Assembly: GCA_964514595.1 (NCBI GenBank)
Contig: CAZEQZ010000002.1
Span: forward strand, 29,812 to 93,811
Direction: 5' to 3'
Source of the DNA: an uncultured Candidatus Saccharibacteria bacterium
Lineage (GTDB): Bacteria > Patescibacteriota > Dojkabacteria > SC72
DNA: 64,000 nt
The position numbers and the translations under genes were made by a program. Below, in pieces: positions 17,651 to 41,343 of the stretch. The notes under the pieces were generated by a model that saw nothing but the letters and a program-made list of their open reading frames with translations, did no database searches and was not told the origin of the DNA. Numbering within the stretch: position 1 is the stretch's first letter; every line of letters begins with the position of its first letter.

Positions 17651-17724
17651 TGGTTGCCGGACCTAGATTCGAACTAGGATTAACGGTTTCAGAGACCGTC
17701 GTCCTACCATTAGACGATCCGGCA
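17651..17724 (-). tRNA. tRNA-Gln (anticodon CUG), CCA encoded
   Basis: Minus-strand sequence TGCCGGA-TC-GTCT-AATGGTA-GGAC-G-ACGGT-CTCTGAA-ACCGT-TAAT-CCTAG-TTCGAAT-CTAGG-TCCGGCA-A-CCA. It folds as a cloverleaf with a 7-nt anticodon loop CTCTGAA. Confidence 0.8.
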
Positions 17725-30107: not shown

Positions 30108-33100
30108 TTAAGATTTTTTCACCTTTATCCTCTCTGCAAGAATGTAGTTATCTTTTCTCACATCAATGAAAGTCCCCCTCTTGATATCAACTAACTCCCA
30201 ACCTTTCTCCGCAATATCAAGCTCATATTTACCTTTGTCTAATATAAATCTATATTTACCTTTACTGTTTGTTACTCTTTTAGCTATTACCTTATTGAAT
30301 TCCTTTTCTCGTATAGTTATAGATATGTTAGATAGTGGCTTACCCTTCTCATCTACAACTTTTCCATATTTACCTTTCTTATTAAAGAAAGAGTTTATTA
30401 AAATATATAACGGGATTATATACAGAAGAAGAAATATTAGATTATTACTATTCCTGTGTGTGTAGTATGTGTACGAGGATATGGTCACTCCCACAATAAA
30501 TATGAAGACATTGAGTATTGATAGTGCTTTAACTAATATATTCTTGATTCTGTGAAATACCATTTGACCACCTAGAATCTCTTTAGGATCTATAGGAACA
30601 GCAATTTGTATATCCGTATCTTCTGACGATATATCTAGGCTACCAGTATATACATTCTGTAATGGATAATCATGTGGACCCTTTACATATATACTTGGGT
30701 ATTCATATCCAGACTTAGATACTTTTAACAAATACTTTCCCTTTCCTAAGCTAGCAGAGAATCTCCCATTGATATCTGTAACAGCTGTATCCACCAACCT
30801 ATCCTTAGTATTAAATACTCTAACTAATGCCATATGGACAGGTTCTTTAGTATTAGAATCATATACAAACCCGTAATTAACCCTCTTCTTTCTAAAGCCT
30901 AAGGAACTCAAAATTAACATCATAAATTGCGATACCATATATCCCAACTGTGTTAACCCACCAAAGAGAGCTGTAGCTCCTACCGTTACAGTTACTACAT
31001 TTGCTGTTGTGGAAATAGTCCGAAGCTCCCTCTCTTCAAGATTGGTCACAACATCTGTATTTATCAATATGCCTAAAGTATTATCCTTTATAAAGTTTGT
31101 AATTTTCTGAATAGTTGATTGCTTTGGAACAGCCTTCTCTGATTTCGACTCCTCTTTTTTCTCCTCCACGACAGGTTTATCTACTTTAGTATCTTTCGGT
31201 TCTTCATAGTAGAATCCTAGTCCTCCTGTACCTCTTAACCCATCAGCAACCCAATAATTTATTCCACCTATTACTACCTTAGACACCGTAACTGATGACT
31301 CCCCTACATTCTTTTTACTCGGAAACTCCCCTGTAAATTGTACTGCTCCCGAACACTTCTCCTTTACTTCCTCTAACTGAGAGGCACCTGGGCAAAGCAG
31401 AAACGCATTCGTATCATCTGCATTAACATACATTGTGAACGGATTAGAGACACCATGATTCTCTTGAAGCTTTATTACTGTCTTCCTCTCTTCTGGAGCA
31501 CTTAGTATTATAGCGTCCTGCCAATCCCTATCCTGATTAAATAAAACAGGAATATCCGCTACTAGGAGATCCCCTTTCTTTATCCTAACATTCCTTTCCC
31601 CGAATTGAGCATTATTACGTACTGTTAAATCTATATTCTCTTGAGTAGCCAGGGTAGCACGAAGTGTACTGTCAATATTTCTCAATATAGCCCCTGTACC
31701 GATGAAGATTGGATCACTCCAACCAGTTTGTACTAGAGATTTATTTCTAGCCTTAACTGAAAACCCATACTGAACTCCTGTCTCCAATCCATTTACTATT
31801 ACTCCATTAGCAGATCCAAAATTAGAGAAAGTTCCCCATTTTTCCTGAACAGTTAATGTCCCTAATTCAAAATCTAAATACCTACCACTATTGTTTTCTC
31901 TAATTAATAACTCTGTATCTGCTGGATTATCTAAAGTATTAATATATACCCTAGCACTATCACTTGACACAGCATTCACCCTAACCATGGATGGGCTCTG
32001 AGCGAAGGTATATATTGATTGATTCGTTGACCAGGTTGTAGCAACATTCTTTTTATTTAAACTTCTTACTTTAAATTCGTACTCAGTATTAGGAAGCAAT
32101 CCATCAATATCGATACTGGAAGAAAATGGAGTAATGGAGGAGGAAGTCATTAATATTTTCAGATCATTATTGTAATATCTATTACTCTTATTCTCCACTA
32201 TCTGTAGGCTATCCCTACTACTTCCAGATATTGCTAATCTAACAGAGGATGCTCCTGTTGCAGTTACTGAGGATATCCTAGAAGGTTCTGAGTGCGTAGA
32301 GAAAAGAAATGTATTTGAATAATCACTTTCAGATATATTACTGTACACTTTCACCTTCCTAGCATATTCTGTATTAGAGGAGAGATTTCCCTCTATACAC
32401 TGGTTCATACTATTAACAGAGCAGGTGATCAACAGATTGTTATTGGAATCATAGATCTTATATCCTACCTTAGAAGCATTGCTATCCGTTACTCTCCAAG
32501 TAAATGAACTGGCTGTTGTTGTGAGAGCTGAGAGTAGTGTCGGAGGATATAGTTTAGTTGCAACTGTAACTGATTGAGAAAATTCACTTTCTATATCCGC
32601 TTCATTTCTAGATTTAACTTTGAATCTGTATTCCGTACCTACTTCCAACCCAACAACTTCCTTTCCATTCTCCGACCCGAACTGAGTATATGTTCCCCAT
32701 ACCTCCTCATCTACCAAAGCTCCTGTAGAGATATCTACATACTTGTTCGTACTTTCTTCCATAATTGCATATTGTGTACCTACAGGGTTATTATCCTGAC
32801 TTAAAGCAACAGTTATACTGTTTATAGTTCGTGCAATTAATACTGGTACATTTGGTATATCTGATTTAGTATATGTCCCTATATACTCACTAAAGGTAGT
32901 TTCTATACCATTATAGTTTCTAGATTTCACCCTGAAGAAATAAAGGGTATTAGGTTCTAAATTAGTTACTGCTGTACTTTCTGATTGAGTCCATACGGAA
33001 ATTCCCTCATTACAATCTAATTCCTCACATTCAAAAAATACGCCTGAATTACCGTCATTTATATTATTTACCCCCTCTGCTGTTAAAGAGACTGAAGAAG

Positions 33101-35534
33101 ATGAAAGAGGAGACAAAGATATGGATGGAACTTCTGCCAAAGTATATATTGTTATACTCTCAGAATATTCGGTTTCAACACCATCTCCATTTCTGCCCTT
33201 CACTCTGAAAGTATATGCGGTATTAAAATCCAAATTAGTTACCTCATCACTACTGGTAGATATCCATTCATTAATACCTGTGTCACATCCTGTATTCTCA
33301 CAATCAAAATATATTTCCGACCCATTTATCTGACCGAGGGCAGACAGATTTATCGTTGAAACAGTTTTCTCTCCTCCTTCTAGTATTGTTGGTGGCGAGA
33401 GTAGTGTATACACATATGCAAGTTCAGAAGGGGCACTTTCTCCTGAGGAATTGTATGCAGTAATTTTTCTAGAATATTGAGTATTCTCATCAAGACCAGT
33501 CTCATCACAATATGTTAAGTCCTCTCCAAGGCAGTATTTAATTAAATTGTCTTCTTCATCATACAGAGCAAATCCTTCTTCATTGTTAGCATTATCTGAG
33601 AAGTGCCATCTGATGACAGAGGTTGACAAAGCTTCAGGTGTCCCCATTGTTGGGACTTCAGGAGCCGTAGAATAAGTTAGAGATACACCTTCTAATACAG
33701 GAGTGTCTTGTCCACTATTAGTATCAAAAGATATTTTGTAATAAAACTCAGAAGTTTGTAGATCTAATTCTTCCAGAATGATCTCTACATTTTCACCAAG
33801 GATTAGCTCATCATCACCATCTTCTATTCCAGAGGAATCAAACCACATTAAAGAATCCGTACTAAATTGAATAGAAGCTGAAGTCCCCACAGGTTTAGAA
33901 GATAGAGTATAAGAGAAGGACTGTATAAAAACATTATTTTCTTCCGAAATCAAATCAGACGATTGCAAAGTCATTGAGTTGGCGTATGCAGGGCTCACTT
34001 GTGAACTTGCGACAGGGGTGGAATTACCATTAAAAGAAGTCGTGTATTCTATACGAACCCTACCATCACCTCCGGCAACTCCTCGTGTAGATGGAACACC
34101 AGCAGATGCAGTAGTAGAAGACTCACTTAAACTTATTTGCCCTCCTACTATCTTAATAGCACCACCTGCGCCGGTTCCTCCCCCAGAACCCTTGGATTCA
34201 GGTTCCGCAGTAATGTTTCCTCCATTACTTTTTATTGAGCCCAACACATTTATATCAGTCCCCAAAATAAATATTATTCCTCCTCCACGACTCCCACTCG
34301 TACCATCATAATAAGATCCCGATAACCCTTGACCTGCACCACCTCCACCTCCACCTCCTCCGAAATTAAGCCTAGACAAATCAGCTTCTCCCGCGCTTTT
34401 ACCACCACCCCCTCCTCCAGCCGAGTATCTCTTATCTCCGTAATGCAAAGCCCCCGCTCCCCCGGCTCCACTGGCCGAAGATGTTCCCCCATCCCCAGAG
34501 GTCACCCTACTATATCCCCCCACTCCTGGGGTTCCATAACCACCGCCCCCTCCTCCTCCACCTAAACCATCACAGTCATTTGTTGTACATTTTGTATTTG
34601 TAGAACCACCACCCCCTCCTCCAACTGATCCGTAATCATTACTTCCAGCTCCTCCTGCCCTGTTAGATCCTCCGCCACCACCACCACTCCAACTTCCTGC
34701 ATACCCTACTGCACCAGTAGCTCCTCCCTTCCCATCGTTTCCAGATACTGGGAAATATCCTTCTCCAGGAGTAGTATTACATGCTCCTACAGCACACTTA
34801 TTTCCTCCTCTATATCCCAAAGCAGAAACATCTATATTTCCGTTTACATTAACTACCCCAGAAGCTTCAAACGAGAAAACTCCTCCTTTTGTACCATCCC
34901 ATGCATCAGGATACCAATTTACCCCAGCATTAACTGTTACATCACTATACTGGGGAATTCTCTGAACCATTATTTTTTGTGTAGTACCATTGTATCCATT
35001 TGTCAGATTCCTATCTAAAGAGAGAATTTCGCCTACTACATTCTCTACGTATGCAGTTTCATACTGTCCGACATTTGAATGATCTGCTTGTGTACCTTGT
35101 AAGTTTATTATCAATATTTCATCCCCTATCGACAACCCCGTAGCTACAGAAGATAGGGTTATGCTATCACTCCCAGCCACCACATTTTCTGTTACAGAGA
35201 AATTAACTGCATCTCCATCCACTCTCCCAACACAGCTCCCAGTATTAATGTTTGTATTTACAGAAACAGTACAAATTCCATCATTCCCTGTTCCAAAACT
35301 AACTTTACTAACTTTAACAGTTCCCTCCCCAATATCATAATTAGATGAATTGACCTGATCTATTAAATCTAATGTGCTGAAATCCTCTACTACGGTATGT
35401 GCAACACTTTGTATGGTTCTTGCAAGATATAAATAAACAGCTATAGGTAAAAATGTGATTACTGTAAATACTGAAAGAATAACTATAAACCTCCTCCAAT
35501 TAAAATTCCCTAAGAGTGTTTTCTTTTTCTTCAT
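30108..35534 (-). CDS. giant (1808 aa) cell-surface protein: signal anchor, Gly-rich beta region, about 8 FN3-like repeats, then TM helices interleaved with two CarboxypepD_reg-like domains
   Basis: N-terminal TM. Poly-Gly runs at aa ~230–560 (GGGGGGS, GLGGGGGGGGYGTPG). Repeated ~90-aa FN3-like units (e.g. ...YFDCENTGCDTGINEWISTSSDEVTNLDFNTAYTFRVKGRNGDGVETEYSESITIYTLAEVP). Hydrophobic helices at aa ~1480–1520 and ~1660–1720. Two transthyretin-like segments (GFVYDSNTKEPVHMALVRVF...; GKVVDEKGKPLSNISITIRE...). Confidence 0.7.
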   Translation of the reverse strand: MKKKKTLLGNFNWRRFIVILSVFTVITFLPIAVYLYLARTIQSVAHTVVEDFSTLDLIDQVNSSNYDIGEGTVKVSKVSFGTGNDGICTVSVNTNINTGSCVGRVDGDAVNFSVTENVVAGSDSITLSSVATGLSIGDEILIINLQGTQADHSNVGQYETAYVENVVGEILSLDRNLTNGYNGTTQKIMVQRIPQYSDVTVNAGVNWYPDAWDGTKGGVFSFEASGVVNVNGNIDVSALGYRGGNKCAVGACNTTPGEGYFPVSGNDGKGGATGAVGYAGSWSGGGGGGSNRAGGAGSNDYGSVGGGGGGSTNTKCTTNDCDGLGGGGGGGGYGTPGVGGYSRVTSGDGGTSSASGAGGAGALHYGDKRYSAGGGGGGKSAGEADLSRLNFGGGGGGGGAGQGLSGSYYDGTSGSRGGGIIFILGTDINVLGSIKSNGGNITAEPESKGSGGGTGAGGAIKIVGGQISLSESSTTASAGVPSTRGVAGGDGRVRIEYTTSFNGNSTPVASSQVSPAYANSMTLQSSDLISEENNVFIQSFSYTLSSKPVGTSASIQFSTDSLMWFDSSGIEDGDDELILGENVEIILEELDLQTSEFYYKISFDTNSGQDTPVLEGVSLTYSTAPEVPTMGTPEALSTSVIRWHFSDNANNEEGFALYDEEDNLIKYCLGEDLTYCDETGLDENTQYSRKITAYNSSGESAPSELAYVYTLLSPPTILEGGEKTVSTINLSALGQINGSEIYFDCENTGCDTGINEWISTSSDEVTNLDFNTAYTFRVKGRNGDGVETEYSESITIYTLAEVPSISLSPLSSSSVSLTAEGVNNINDGNSGVFFECEELDCNEGISVWTQSESTAVTNLEPNTLYFFRVKSRNYNGIETTFSEYIGTYTKSDIPNVPVLIARTINSITVALSQDNNPVGTQYAIMEESTNKYVDISTGALVDEEVWGTYTQFGSENGKEVVGLEVGTEYRFKVKSRNEADIESEFSQSVTVATKLYPPTLLSALTTTASSFTWRVTDSNASKVGYKIYDSNNNLLITCSVNSMNQCIEGNLSSNTEYARKVKVYSNISESDYSNTFLFSTHSEPSRISSVTATGASSVRLAISGSSRDSLQIVENKSNRYYNNDLKILMTSSSITPFSSSIDIDGLLPNTEYEFKVRSLNKKNVATTWSTNQSIYTFAQSPSMVRVNAVSSDSARVYINTLDNPADTELLIRENNSGRYLDFELGTLTVQEKWGTFSNFGSANGVIVNGLETGVQYGFSVKARNKSLVQTGWSDPIFIGTGAILRNIDSTLRATLATQENIDLTVRNNAQFGERNVRIKKGDLLVADIPVLFNQDRDWQDAIILSAPEERKTVIKLQENHGVSNPFTMYVNADDTNAFLLCPGASQLEEVKEKCSGAVQFTGEFPSKKNVGESSVTVSKVVIGGINYWVADGLRGTGGLGFYYEEPKDTKVDKPVVEEKKEESKSEKAVPKQSTIQKITNFIKDNTLGILINTDVVTNLEERELRTISTTANVVTVTVGATALFGGLTQLGYMVSQFMMLILSSLGFRKKRVNYGFVYDSNTKEPVHMALVRVFNTKDRLVDTAVTDINGRFSASLGKGKYLLKVSKSGYEYPSIYVKGPHDYPLQNVYTGSLDISSEDTDIQIAVPIDPKEILGGQMVFHRIKNILVKALSILNVFIFIVGVTISSYTYYTHRNSNNLIFLLLYIIPLYILINSFFNKKGKYGKVVDEKGKPLSNISITIREKEFNKVIAKRVTNSKGKYRFILDKGKYELDIAEKGWELVDIKRGTFIDVRKDNYILAERIKVKKS

Positions 35535-37697: not shown

Positions 37698-38969
37698 ATG
37701 AAGATCAAAAACATACAAGCCAGAGAAATATTAGATTCCAGAGGTATACCAACAATATCTACTGAGATAGAGCTATGGAGCGGGGAAACAGGAGTCGCAG
37801 AAGTACCGTCCGGAGCATCTACAGGAAAAACAGAAGTTTTAGAAATGAGAGATGAAGACAACGAAAGACACAATGGAAAAGGTGTACTTAAAGCAGTAGA
37901 GATAATTAATACCACTATTAGAGATCTTGTAGTGAACAAAGAATTCTCTAGCCAAAGAGAGTTTGATGAACTATTAATAAATGAAGATGCAACTGAATTA
38001 AAAACCAAATTAGGAGGAAACACAATACTCTCCTGCTCTATGGCATTTGCCAGAGCAGTATCTAACGAATTTGGTCTAAATCTGTACGAATATATTGGGA
38101 TGATATATTGGGACAAGGAGTATTCTACAAGTAACTTCAAAATGCCTACCCCCCTTATACTTGTAATGGAAGGTGCAAAACATGGAAACTGGGCTACTGA
38201 CATACAAGAGTATATGTTAGCTCCTAAGATAGAAAGATTTGGATCTTTTAGTGAAGCATTCAGAGTTACAACAGAGGTATTTCATAATATTCATGACATT
38301 CTTGATACCAAGGGATATTCAGTTGGGCTTGGACTGGAGGGTGCATTCGCACCAAAAGAGATAGGAAGTAACAAGGAAGCTTTTGAAATAATAATGGAGG
38401 GGTTGAAGAAATCAGGTTTTAATCCAGGACAGGATTTTGACATTGCCTTAGATCTAGCAAGTTCCGAATTCTATGATGAGCAAAAAGATATATATGTATT
38501 AAAAAGCGAGAACAAAGAATTGAGCAAGGATGAATGGATATCACTACAAAGAGAATGGTATAAAGAATTTCCAGTATCTTCCATAGAGGACCCTCTACAT
38601 CAGGATGATTGGAATGGATGGAGTGAATTTACAAGAGAGTTTGGAGAAAAATATCAGATTGTTGGAGATGACCTACTAACTACGAATGTTAAAAGGATAC
38701 AGAGAGCTATTGAAGAGAAGGCCGTCAATAGTGTACTCATAAAATTAAACCAAATAGGAACAGTATCAGAGACGCTGGACGCTATACGATTGACGGTAGA
38801 CAATGGGATGAGTGCTGTTATTTCACACAGGAGTGGAGAAACAAATGACGACTTTATTGCTGATTTAGTTGTAGCTACACCTGCAAATCAGTGTAAATTT
38901 GGAGGTCCTAGTAGAGGTGAGAGGCTGGCAAAATATAACAGATTATTAGATATTGAACAAAATATATAA
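37698..38969 (+). CDS. eno: enolase (phosphopyruvate hydratase)
   Basis: SRGIPTISTEIELWSGETGVAEVPSGASTGKTEVLEMRD and SHRSGETNDDFIADLVVA. Enolase signature along the full length. Confidence 0.95.
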   Translation: MKIKNIQAREILDSRGIPTISTEIELWSGETGVAEVPSGASTGKTEVLEMRDEDNERHNGKGVLKAVEIINTTIRDLVVNKEFSSQREFDELLINEDATELKTKLGGNTILSCSMAFARAVSNEFGLNLYEYIGMIYWDKEYSTSNFKMPTPLILVMEGAKHGNWATDIQEYMLAPKIERFGSFSEAFRVTTEVFHNIHDILDTKGYSVGLGLEGAFAPKEIGSNKEAFEIIMEGLKKSGFNPGQDFDIALDLASSEFYDEQKDIYVLKSENKELSKDEWISLQREWYKEFPVSSIEDPLHQDDWNGWSEFTREFGEKYQIVGDDLLTTNVKRIQRAIEEKAVNSVLIKLNQIGTVSETLDAIRLTVDNGMSAVISHRSGETNDDFIADLVVATPANQCKFGGPSRGERLAKYNRLLDIEQNI

Positions 38970-39047
38970 CAAAGGGAATAGGCGAGCGTGGAATAGATAA
39001 AAATCTTTTAGACTTCTGAAGTCTAATTATTCCACACTCACCGTTAG

Positions 39048-39121
39048 CGCTCCTGAAAGGATTCGAACCTCTATACAGTCATTCAAAGGCTGACTGGCTT
39101 TTCCATTTAAGCTACAGGAGC
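39048..39121 (-). tRNA. tRNA with an atypical 9-nt anticodon loop (GCCUUUGAA); identity unresolved (Gln-UUG or Lys-UUU), possible pseudo-tRNA
   Basis: GCTCCTG-TA-GCTT-AAATGGAA-AAGC-C-AGTCA-GCCTTTGAA-TGACT-GTAT-AGAGG-TTCGAAT-CCTTT-CAGGAGC-G. All other arms are canonical, including the T-loop TTCGAAT. Discriminator is G73. No CCA. Confidence 0.55.
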
Positions 39122-39167
39122 ATAAAATACCAGAATTATATACTATAAGCTTCTAAAATTACAGTTC

Positions 39168-40271
39168 CTAAAGAGACAATCTTGGCTCCCTATCTATTTC
39201 TTTAATTTCATTTTTGTCTGTAATATATTCTTTCCTCTGTATTTTGTAATATGCAACTATCCCAACCATTCCTGCATTATCTCCTCTGTATTCTTTTTTA
39301 GGATATATATATTCCAAACCGTATGATCTAGCAATATTGCCTATAAATCTGACCATTTCCTCACTGTTAAATACCCCACCTCCCACAAATATAGCTTTTA
39401 TTTCAGGATACTGTTCTATAGCCATATCTAATTTTATTTTAATAGACTCATTCACAGCGTCCAAAAATCCTCTACAGAAATCATATATCCATTCTTTCTC
39501 TGGCTTCCCTTCCTCTCTTAGTTCCTTAACCTTATACAGTGCTGCTGTTTTCAAACCCGAATAGCTAAAGTTAAGATCTTTGGAATTCTTCATTGGTATA
39601 GGGAAGACAATTTCCCCTGATTTTCCTTTCTTTGCAAATTCGGTAATTACAGGACCACCTGGATATCCCAAATTCAACATCCTCGCAACCTTATCAAATG
39701 CCTCGCCCACTGCATCATCCAATGTCTCCCCAAGTTTCTTGTACTCCCCAGTCTGTTGAACATGTACCAGCTCAGTGTGCTTACCAGATACCAAAAGACC
39801 AATGGCCGGAAATAGGGACAGACCCTGGTACGACCCCTGTGGTTTCAAAATATTATCGCTATGCAATTTCTTCTGGTCCAGGGACAGACCAGGGTCAGAC
39901 CCCAGAAAACCTGAGAGTAAGTGCCCTTCCATATGGTTTATAGGTACAAATGGAAGACCATTTTCAATTGCCAAATCCTTAGCAAAGTTCAAACCTATCT
40001 CCAGATCAATCGCTAACCCTGGACCATACGTACATGCTATATAATCAACATCCTCGATTTTAACCTTTGCTCTCTTAAGTGCCTTCTCATATACGATTGG
40101 TATGTTTTTTTCATGCTCTCTCCTGGCTATATCTGGCACTACTCCACCCCACTGAGCATGTATTTCCACCTGAGAGGATACCTCAGAAGAAAGGATCTTA
40201 TTCCCTCTTAAGACTGCTACAGATGTATCATCACAACTTGTATCTATTGCTAATATTAGTAGGTTATTCAT
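39168..40271 (-). CDS. tsaD: tRNA N6-adenosine threonylcarbamoyltransferase TsaD (Kae1/Gcp family), carrying a ~25-aa in-frame insertion
   Basis: ILAIDTSCDDTSVAVL, HMEGHLLSGF and LLVSGKHTELVHV. Between the HMEGH region and LLVSG lies an extra segment GSDPGLSLDQKKLHSDNILKPQGSYQGLSLFP. It is encoded by GC-rich repeat DNA. Confidence 0.9.
   Translation of the reverse strand: MNNLLILAIDTSCDDTSVAVLRGNKILSSEVSSQVEIHAQWGGVVPDIARREHEKNIPIVYEKALKRAKVKIEDVDYIACTYGPGLAIDLEIGLNFAKDLAIENGLPFVPINHMEGHLLSGFLGSDPGLSLDQKKLHSDNILKPQGSYQGLSLFPAIGLLVSGKHTELVHVQQTGEYKKLGETLDDAVGEAFDKVARMLNLGYPGGPVITEFAKKGKSGEIVFPIPMKNSKDLNFSYSGLKTAALYKVKELREEGKPEKEWIYDFCRGFLDAVNESIKIKLDMAIEQYPEIKAIFVGGGVFNSEEMVRFIGNIARSYGLEYIYPKKEYRGDNAGMVGIVAYYKIQRKEYITDKNEIKEIDREPRLSL
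39815..39903. repeat. three copies of the GGGACAGACC/GGGTCAGACCC palindromic repeat inside the tsaD coding region
   Basis: GGGACAGACCCTGG (39815), GGGACAGACCAGGG (39881) and GGGTCAGACCCCAG (39893). The 23-mer GGGACAGACCAGGGTCAGACCCC matches the copy upstream of eno. It is translated as PGLSL/QGLSL in tsaD. Confidence 0.5.
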
Positions 40272-41343
40272 ATATCTCTATGCTCCTCTCATTAAGTGAT
40301 ACATACTTAATATTTACCTTGTATATGGGAATATTCATATTGTCACACAGTGCAGATATCTCTTGGTAGAATTTATCTGCCCACTCTATCAATACAATGT
40401 TTCCACTCTCTAAATGTTGGATTAATCCTGAGGTCTCTAATTCATGATCCTCTAATTTCCATGTATCCATATGTGCGAGGATCTGTCCCTTGTTATATGT
40501 ATATTCATTAATTATGGTATATGTCGGTGAATTTACGATTTCTTTAACTCCAAGTTGTTCAGCTACTCCTTTTGCAAATTGTGTTTTTCCTGCTCCTAGT
40601 TCTCCACTTAGTGCTACTACAACCGGGATATCTTCTGACAGATATTTTTTAGCAAATTCTTTTGCTAAATCAATAGTTTCTTGGGTTGTTTTTGTATTCC
40701 TTTCTTCCACCTTTTTATTTTTAATTAAGGCATTTTCAAATTGAAGCTTACCCTGCCTTAGGATACTTAATTGGTTCATTGTGGTGTCTAATACTGTAGA
40801 GGGTTGATTTTTAGGTAGTTGGCCCGCATCTAGGAAAAGATCTATCAGTTTAAAACTTTTCTTAGGAAGATCTTTCATTAACTGATCTATGTTGTATGGA
40901 GGTGATTTGTATGACACATTAGCTGATGTTGCTGTTATCGGTTTCCCGAATTGTTTAATTAATTCTAATGTAAATTCATAATCTGGATATCTTACTCCCA
41001 CAGCTCCCTGTATGGATACTACTGGAGGAACTAGATTACCCTTACTCATTGATATTACAGTTATTGGTCCAGGGAGATAGTTTTTGTATATGTTGTCTGC
41101 CATTTCATTAATCTCTACATACTCCTCTGCCATCTTCCTGTCTGCTACAGCTATGGATATGGGTTTGGATCCTCTGAGTGTTTTATATTCCATTATCTTT
41201 TCCAATGCTTTTGGATTAGTTGCATCTCCTCCTAGTCCATAGCAAGTTTCTGTCGGGTATACAATTAATCCACCGTTTTTTAATGTTTCAACGGCTTTTT
41301 TTATAGCAAGATCTTTATCTTTTTTAATATCAATTCTGTTCAT
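40264..41343 (-). CDS. tsaC-tsaE: fused L-threonylcarbamoyladenylate synthase (TsaC/Sua5/YrdC domain) and TsaE (YjeE P-loop ATPase)
   Basis: N-terminal YrdC-type fold (VYPTETCYGLGGDATNPKALEKI...). The C-terminal ~140 aa carry the TsaE Walker A ALSGELGAGKTQFAKGVAEQLGV, then SPTYTIINEY and IEWADKF. Confidence 0.8.
   Translation of the reverse strand: MNRIDIKKDKDLAIKKAVETLKNGGLIVYPTETCYGLGGDATNPKALEKIMEYKTLRGSKPISIAVADRKMAEEYVEINEMADNIYKNYLPGPITVISMSKGNLVPPVVSIQGAVGVRYPDYEFTLELIKQFGKPITATSANVSYKSPPYNIDQLMKDLPKKSFKLIDLFLDAGQLPKNQPSTVLDTTMNQLSILRQGKLQFENALIKNKKVEERNTKTTQETIDLAKEFAKKYLSEDIPVVVALSGELGAGKTQFAKGVAEQLGVKEIVNSPTYTIINEYTYNKGQILAHMDTWKLEDHELETSGLIQHLESGNIVLIEWADKFYQEISALCDNMNIPIYKVNIKYVSLNERSIEIYE

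Follow-up and report, generated by a model that had tools for sequence, protein, structure and literature searches.

A tRNA gene with an anticodon loop of nine nucleotides was identified in the window, i.e. the whole stretch of 64,000 nucleotides analysed in this study, where it lies between tsaD and eno, two convergent genes. The gene is real in the DNA and probably transcribed, and every part of its cloverleaf is regular except the anticodon arm. Taking together its structure, its distribution among related genomes and the identity elements of its body, we give a probability of about 50% to the reading that it is a redundant, accessory and fast-evolving tRNA with a remodelled anticodon loop, which performs little or no normal decoding. 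The gene and its parts are located as follows.

39048..39121, minus strand: tRNA gene with an expanded anticodon loop (ARAGORN; RF00005, 49.4 bits; minimum free energy cloverleaf; identical in six assemblies)
39082..39090, minus strand: nine-nucleotide anticodon loop GCCUUUGAA, read directly; the Rfam and ARAGORN registers differ
39082..39088, minus strand: loop register CUUUGAA with anticodon UUG; the other registers are CCUUUGA, with anticodon UUU and a G-A closing pair, and the five-base CUUUG (Rfam and ARAGORN)
39089..39090, minus strand: extra nucleotides GC, adjoining the 5' strand of the anticodon stem, equal to 31.5/31.6 in the Rfam register (insert columns of cmscan)
39091..39096, minus strand: 5' strand of the anticodon stem, C26 plus AGUCA (sequence and fold)
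39076..39081, minus strand: 3' strand of the anticodon stem, UGACU plus G44 (sequence and fold)
39097..39112, minus strand: D arm GCUU-AAAUGGAA-AAGC, carrying A20 (pattern scans)
39056..39072, minus strand: T arm AGAGG-UUCGAAU-CCUUU (sequence, Rfam and fold)

The gene comprises 74 nt and encodes no CCA, a feature that does not discriminate in this region, as three of the six neighbouring tRNA genes encode CCA and three do not. Read from 5' to 3', the RNA is GCUCCUG UA GCUU AAAUGGAA AAGC C AGUCA GCCUUUGAA UGACU GUAU AGAGG UUCGAAU CCUUU CAGGAGC G. The Rfam model RF00005 matched it with 49.4 bits (E = 1.5e-7), above the gathering score of 29, and fitted CUUUGAA to the seven-nucleotide loop, leaving 'gc' as a 2-nt insertion right 3' of the 5' stem strand; ARAGORN called a tRNA at 39047-39121 and took the central triplet as the anticodon, which gave the name Lys(UUU). 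The minimum free energy structure from RNAfold (-24.1 kcal/mol, z = -2.7) is a cloverleaf with the nine-nucleotide loop and a six-pair hairpin. The acceptor stem has seven Watson-Crick pairs and is followed by the discriminator G, the D stem has four pairs and a loop with A14, G18G19 and A21, the T arm has five pairs, one of them G-U, and a loop of the UUCRANY type (UUCGAAU), and the anticodon stem AGUCA/UGACU forms five pairs, extended by C26-G44, around the nine nucleotides. The positions that hold the L-shape (U8, A14, A15-U48, G18G19, A21, U54-A58 and C56) are all intact, and the broken stems and lost invariant nucleotides of tRNA pseudogenes are absent, in contrast to the relic described below for locus L011. 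A preliminary description of this locus, in which all arms were held to be canonical apart from an anticodon arm with a 6-bp stem enclosing 9 nt, was thus confirmed by Rfam and RNAfold.

The loop is not the regular one of seven nucleotides, in which U33 is followed by a purine at 37; U33 and A37 are obtained only if the two 5' bases are counted as an insertion. Among the 153 distinct ARAGORN tRNAs collected in the analysis, this is the only one with an anticodon arm that is truly 2 nt longer, and the other apparent nine-nucleotide loops were found to be seven-nucleotide loops with a mismatched A31-C39 closing pair. Group I introns have been found in anticodon loops of Patescibacteria tRNAs (PMC13011429). 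An intron or intron relic was considered for this loop and rejected, because only two nucleotides are extra and they show no intron-like sequence.

Six contigs, each from a different sample, carry the exact 74-mer; they were built by at least three pipelines and belong to two ENA MEGAHIT assemblies, a single JGI assembly and three Logan assemblies of SRA runs. TsaD was found at 100% identity on 19 contigs, of which these six were examined for the 74-mer. In two of them the rest of the locus shows 3-4 substitutions relative to the window, so that the contigs are not copies of a single assembly. Assemblies of the species are 99.9-100% identical, and because the population is so nearly clonal it allows no within-species test of selection.

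The G+C content of the window is about 35%, and its genes follow the standard code. Identity of its TsaD to other sequences reaches 80% at most, and the named relatives belong to candidate division WS6 / Candidatus Dojkabacteria (Patescibacteria). The tRNA gene starts 46 nt downstream of tsaD, on the same strand, and faces the 3' end of eno, in the following arrangement.

39168..40271, minus strand: tsaD (t6A synthase subunit), upstream neighbour (PF00814)
37698..38969, plus strand: eno (enolase), convergent downstream neighbour (PF03952, PF00113)
38970..39167, minus strand: insert of about 198 bp relative to the closest relatives, made up of the promoter-like motif, the tRNA and the hairpin (alignment with L007; downstream sequences of 41 loci)
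39135..39147, minus strand: putative promoter-like motif TATAGTATATAAT, with a -10 TATAAT that ends 13 nt before the tRNA 5' end
38985..39038, minus strand: compound hairpin separating the tRNA from the 3' end of eno (fold of 38985-39125, z = -3.9; alignments)

A motif similar to the promoter-like element, (T)ATAGTATAAT, precedes the homologous elements of L012 and L076. The upstream motif TATAGTATAWAAT is not enriched within the window, and thus does not count as evidence for a shared tRNA promoter. The hairpin consists of an outer 10-pair stem around two smaller hairpins, and neither strand carries a U tract; in L011 and L016 its G-rich/C-rich base (..GTGGA..TCCAC..) has been conserved with compensatory changes. 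It is likely to be a shared terminator or processing structure, and may be a bidirectional terminator or processing site. Scans with consensus promoter and terminator models called neither TATAGTATATAAT nor the hairpin at 38985-39038, and the terminator scan found none between tsaD and the tRNA. Neither the window nor any of the loci was found to contain a further copy of the 198-bp insert or an att-like repeat of the 3' half of the tRNA. Two further neighbours were recorded. A 359-aa ORF on the minus strand (40264-41343), upstream of and overlapping tsaD, is a fusion of Sua5/TsaC (PF01300) and TsaE (PF02367) that is conserved in all Dojkabacteria-like loci fetched. A giant surface protein is probably encoded by an 1808-aa ORF on the minus strand (30108-35534), which has long Gly-rich tracts, FN3-like repeats and a membrane/CarboxypepD_reg-like part at its C-terminus; a homologue is present in the same neighbourhood of L011 (PF21722 Gly_rich_2, fn3).

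The closest relatives (L007-L010, L074 and L075; TsaD 80%, 77% and 74% identical) carry no tRNA between the two genes, the stops of which overlap or abut. Overlapping or abutting genes with no tRNA were likewise seen in L015, L018, L020, L022, L035, L042-L044, L079 and L080, so that the junction without tRNA was recorded in thirteen related lineages in all. At 4000-4011 of L007 the 3' ends of tsaD and eno overlap by about 12 nt, without an intergenic terminator, and an overlap of about 12 nt was also seen in L015, L020, L022, L035, L074, L075 and L080, i.e. in most relatives. Homologous inserts, recognised by the upstream motif, a GGTTCGAATCC-type T arm and the downstream hairpin base (..GGTGGA...TCCAC..), are carried by three or four lineages, which are scattered on a TsaD neighbour-joining tree, a single-gene distance tree that serves as a rough guide to relationships. 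L016 has a regular tRNA-Thr(UGU) with a seven-nucleotide loop in this slot, and L011 has a decayed relic that has lost the tRNA fold. L012-14 and L076 have RNAs with a seven-pair acceptor stem, a T arm and the tail CGCUCUU, in which unrelated hairpins replace the D and anticodon arms, at these positions.

L012, 6150-6245: tRNA-like RNA gene downstream of tsaD, with identical copies in L013 and L014
L076, 1443-1545: tRNA-like RNA gene downstream of tsaD

These two genes are preceded by promoter-like TAGTATAAT..TTTAAATAT and have the T arm CUGGG-UUCGAUC-CCCAG, discriminator U and the tail CUU; their seven acceptor pairs are kept with changes on both strands, and one replacement hairpin bears a GAGA tetraloop (fold of L012, z = -3.6). 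Neither ARAGORN nor Rfam called a tRNA in the elements of L012-14 and L076, which may represent a small family of acceptor/T-arm minihelix RNAs.

The tRNAs of the window and L016 share only 68% identity, whereas across the same relatives the housekeeping tRNAs for Asp, Leu and Val match the window copies at 84-100%. Together with the contents of the slot, this difference indicates that the slot holds a dispensable, quickly changing gene, the anticodon included. In its absence from close relatives, its position in a fast-evolving slot and its defective anticodon loop, the window gene shows the dispensability expected of a tRNA pseudogene.

Codon use is 15.4 per 1000 for CAA and 45.4 per 1000 for AAA, and decoders of codons as frequent as these are essential. 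Since relatives lack a tRNA at this position, the CAA and AAA decoders of the clade must be encoded elsewhere, and by parsimony the same would hold for this genome. The heavily used UUG/UUU decoder that the preliminary description expected here is therefore unlikely, given thirteen lineages without the tRNA and a slot that elsewhere contains tRNA-Thr(UGU), a relic or tRNA-like RNAs. Genes for Gln(UUG), Lys(UUU) or Arg(UCU) were not found in the roughly 81 kb scanned (the window plus about 17 kb of flanks) of a genome of about 760 kb. The regular tRNAs in this region are Gln-CUG, Val-CAC, Val-UAC, Leu-GAG, Asp-GUC and Asn-GUU, the last being the only one added by the flanks.

The body of the tRNA was compared with those of several isoacceptors. 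The 3' seven nucleotides of the loop, CUUUGAA, form the loop expected of tRNA-Gln(UUG), and the resident tRNA-Gln(CUG), at 17651-17724, does have the similar loop CUCUGAA that had been reported for it. This part of the earlier Gln(UUG) reading stands, but the body does not agree with it: the tRNA-Gln(CUG) of the window (UGCCGGA...UCCGGCA-A) has U1-A72, A73 and the D arm GUCUAAUGGUAGGAC, and the nine-nucleotide-loop tRNA has G1-C72, G73 and the D arm GCUUAAAUGGAAAAGC, which is of the Arg(UCU) type. Under the identity rules from E. coli systems, U1-A72 is expected of tRNA-Gln, and A73 is usual for bacterial tRNA-Lys. The UUG register needs two bulged 5' bases and lacks the acceptor features of Gln. 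In the UUU register the loop positions are C33 and G37, a G-A pair has to close the loop and A73 is lacking, so that U33, an A37 with t6A and A73, as expected of tRNA-Lys(UUU), are all missing; CUUUG would be a five-base anticodon. As judged from these positions, no register of the loop joins canonical geometry with matching identity elements.

Positions 7-25, GUAGCUUAAAUGGAAAAGC, comprising G7-U8-A9 and the D arm, are identical at 19 of 19 positions to tRNA-Arg(UCU) genes of phage arrays (L058, L060-L073), which share A20 and the T loop and are also the best blastn matches to the entire tRNA (about 76%); this likeness was found using the D arm itself as query and is partly by construction. 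Public collections were scanned with the D arm and T loop pattern GTAGCTTAAATGGAAAAGC...GGTTCGAATCC, and one viral and 14 metagenome matches were obtained. All 14 matches that could be called by ARAGORN are tRNA-Arg(UCU) in long phage-type arrays, and the remaining one (L064) is tRNA-like but aberrant, its anticodon arm being truncated. In L058, 24 of the first 25 nucleotides match the window tRNA. The phage-array genes differ from it in their seven-nucleotide loop CUUCUAA, in their acceptor stems, in a discriminator that is mostly A73 and in their location in long arrays on phage-like contigs; the window loop GCCUUUGAA contains no UCU and hence no C35. A20 is the main determinant for ArgRS in E. 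coli, and the window tRNA has A20 and G73. The phage tRNA-Arg(UCU)-type D arm is suggestive of the origin of the gene, as a matter of sequence likeness, and does not prove it. Among viral contigs, no match was obtained with the exact anticodon arm, with a pattern of the acceptor stem plus D arm or with one of the T arm plus acceptor stem. The sole match to a degenerate whole-body pattern was a phage tRNA-Gln(UUG) that is unrelated. In a BLAST search of the phage collection, only weak (75%) matches to Klebsiella phage tRNA-Lys were returned, and no second copy with a nine-nucleotide loop was found in the D-arm scan of metagenomes. Other aberrant tRNAs were seen in the phage-type arrays (L059, 993-1065; L062, 5466-5539; L064, 1120-1195): one has an eight-nucleotide loop to which ARAGORN assigns the four-base anticodon 'caaa', one has a six-nucleotide loop with the two-base 'gc', and one, with an Arg-type body and the D arm of the window type, has 19 nt from D arm to T stem and no proper anticodon arm. 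In addition, a tRNA-Lys(UUU) in a phage array (L065, 11475-11550) has the loop CCUUUAA, with C at the near-universal U33; the string CCUUU also occurs in the window loop.

These observations can be accommodated by the following reading. A small module of promoter-like motif, tRNA and large hairpin is distributed patchily and evolves rapidly between the convergent tsaD and eno genes of some Dojkabacteria-like genomes. The window copy would be a xenologue or paralogue with a phage tRNA-Arg(UCU)-type D arm, which has kept the L-shape scaffold while its anticodon hairpin was remodelled to five (plus one) pairs around nine nucleotides. It would then not be the main Gln(UUG) or Lys(UUU) decoder of the cell, and would be neutral or heading to decay, decoding poorly or not at all. 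Poor or absent decoding is the most likely outcome for a loop with 2 nt in excess and no canonical register that comes with matching identity. What speaks most strongly against simple decay is the intact scaffold, as the stems are perfectly paired, the tertiary positions are unchanged and a long-dead pseudogene would resemble the L011 relic. The promoter-like -10 motif and the strong downstream hairpin have also been kept. Streamlined genomes of the CPR (Candidate Phyla Radiation) usually drop useless DNA, which likewise counts against a redundant gene. Both alternatives offered at the outset, a functional expanded-loop tRNA and a pseudogene, stay in play.

Instead of decoding, the module might give rise to a tRNA-like RNA that serves as a punctuation, 3'-end-processing or terminator unit for the tsaD and eno transcripts, or as a decoy or regulator. 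As a substrate for RNase P, RNase Z and the CCA-adding enzyme it would depend only on the acceptor/T-arm minihelix, leaving the anticodon domain free to drift. The elements of L012-14 and L076 are in agreement with this, since their acceptor stem, changed on both strands, their T arm and their CGCUCUU tail persist where the D and anticodon domains are replaced. So are the large conserved hairpin between two convergent genes, with which the module always ends, and the absence of a terminator between tsaD and the tRNA. However, most relatives have overlapping tsaD and eno genes without the module, the window and L016 copies retain full D and anticodon arms that a minihelix would not need, and the promoter-like motif upstream suggests an independent gene. 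We know of no experimental precedent for such a unit in Patescibacteria. On balance we regard a non-decoding role of this kind as unlikely, although worth serious consideration.

A functional decoder with an expanded loop is a still less probable reading. The tRNA would be charged and would act as a SufJ-like +1 frameshift suppressor, or as a reader of four- or five-base codons (CAAA, AAAG, CAAAG) at a programmed recoding site. The intact cloverleaf and tertiary positions, the gene's own promoter-like motif and the layout 2+5+2 (GC-CUUUG-AA), which ends in the usual A37 A38, speak for it, as does the position of the two extra bases right 3' of the 5' stem strand, where SufJ has C31.5 (PMC4238358). 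Engineered tRNAs with loops of eight or nine bases read extended codons, according to PMC11231383, which cites Magliery 2001. Against it, a search of the 64-kb window for genes that are split or frameshifted and would call for a suppressor found none, and the sole pair of overlapping ORFs in this check belongs to two different Pfam families. An efficient frameshifter at CAA and AAA would be toxic, as both codons are common. Moreover, the gene is missing in near relatives, and the homologous slot has other anticodons or no anticodon arm at all. To our knowledge there is no natural bacterial chromosomal example of such a decoder. That the gene is a naturally maintained chromosomal tRNA with a nine-nucleotide loop, charged and used by the ribosome to shift the frame by +1 in the manner of SufJ or to read CAAA, AAAG or CAAAG, is a proposition we would put forward only with strong reservation.

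An ordinary triplet decoder appears about as improbable as that last proposition. A sheared G-A pair would extend the stem to six pairs and leave the seven-nucleotide loop CCUUUGA, which would read AAA (and AAG) as Lys. This corresponds to the ARAGORN call of Lys(UUU), and the phage-array tRNA-Lys(UUU) of L065 demonstrates that C33 beside UUU occurs elsewhere. The discriminator, however, is G instead of A73, G37 cannot carry t6A, U33 is missing and the anticodon would lie one pair further from the elbow; the body is of the Arg rather than the Lys type, and relatives lack the gene. Finally, the caveat that a spurious 2-nt insertion had been assembled or sequenced into a normal tRNA gene is refuted and keeps a negligible chance, because the 74-mer is identical across six independent assemblies, and the inserted GC does not lie within a homopolymer.

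If the tRNA is charged and active, it would provide a rare natural case of extended-codon decoding or tRNA-driven frameshifting in bacteria, of interest for recoding and for expansion of the genetic code. If instead it is redundant, as we prefer, the slot illustrates how redundant tRNA genes in reduced CPR genomes may be gained, remodelled by anticodon switch and loop expansion, and lost quickly at one hotspot. For annotation, the ARAGORN label 'tRNA-Lys(UUU)' would wrongly count the gene as a canonical Lys decoder.

The gene shares with frameshift suppressors of the sufD, sufJ and sufA6 class an anticodon loop enlarged by insertion, here of 2 nt beside the 5' stem strand, where the known suppressors have 1 nt. 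SufJ is a Salmonella tRNA-Thr with a single C31.5 insertion that causes +1 frameshifting (PMC4238358). In both tRNAs the extra sequence is on the 5' side of the loop right after the stem, the 3' seven nucleotides form a canonical loop and the remainder is normal. SufJ has one extra base (an eight-nucleotide loop) and is a laboratory mutant of a housekeeping tRNA with demonstrated +1 suppression, while the window tRNA has two, is natural and lineage-specific, and is known from its sequence. Engineered tRNAs with loops of eight and nine bases read four- and five-base codons (Magliery 2001, Anderson 2002, as cited in PMC11231383). Those with nine bases share with the window tRNA a nine-nucleotide loop in an otherwise normal class I tRNA and a possible 2+5+2 layout; they differ in that they come from in vitro or in vivo selection for suppression and normally carry U33, whereas the 5' bases of the window loop are G and C. 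Natural loops of eight nucleotides are known from the yeast mitochondrial tRNA-Thr1 (PMC3113583) and the mitochondrial tRNA-X of Vischeria (PMC4824035). These are likewise natural, duplicated and remodelled tRNAs with shifts of anticodon and identity and an expanded loop, but they are organellar and longer by one nucleotide rather than two, and the yeast tRNA has a demonstrated decoding role. In a survey of cyanobacteria, 2.2% of the tRNA gene predictions had 'nine nucleotides in the anticodon loop' (PMC6933170). Like the gene described here, these are chromosomal bacterial predictions with a nominal nine-nucleotide loop and a function that is predicted only. Their anticodon stems have three or four pairs, as if the closing pair of a normal arm were unpaired, and the pseudo-nine cases among our 153 tRNAs are of this kind, whereas the arm of the window tRNA is truly 2 nt longer.
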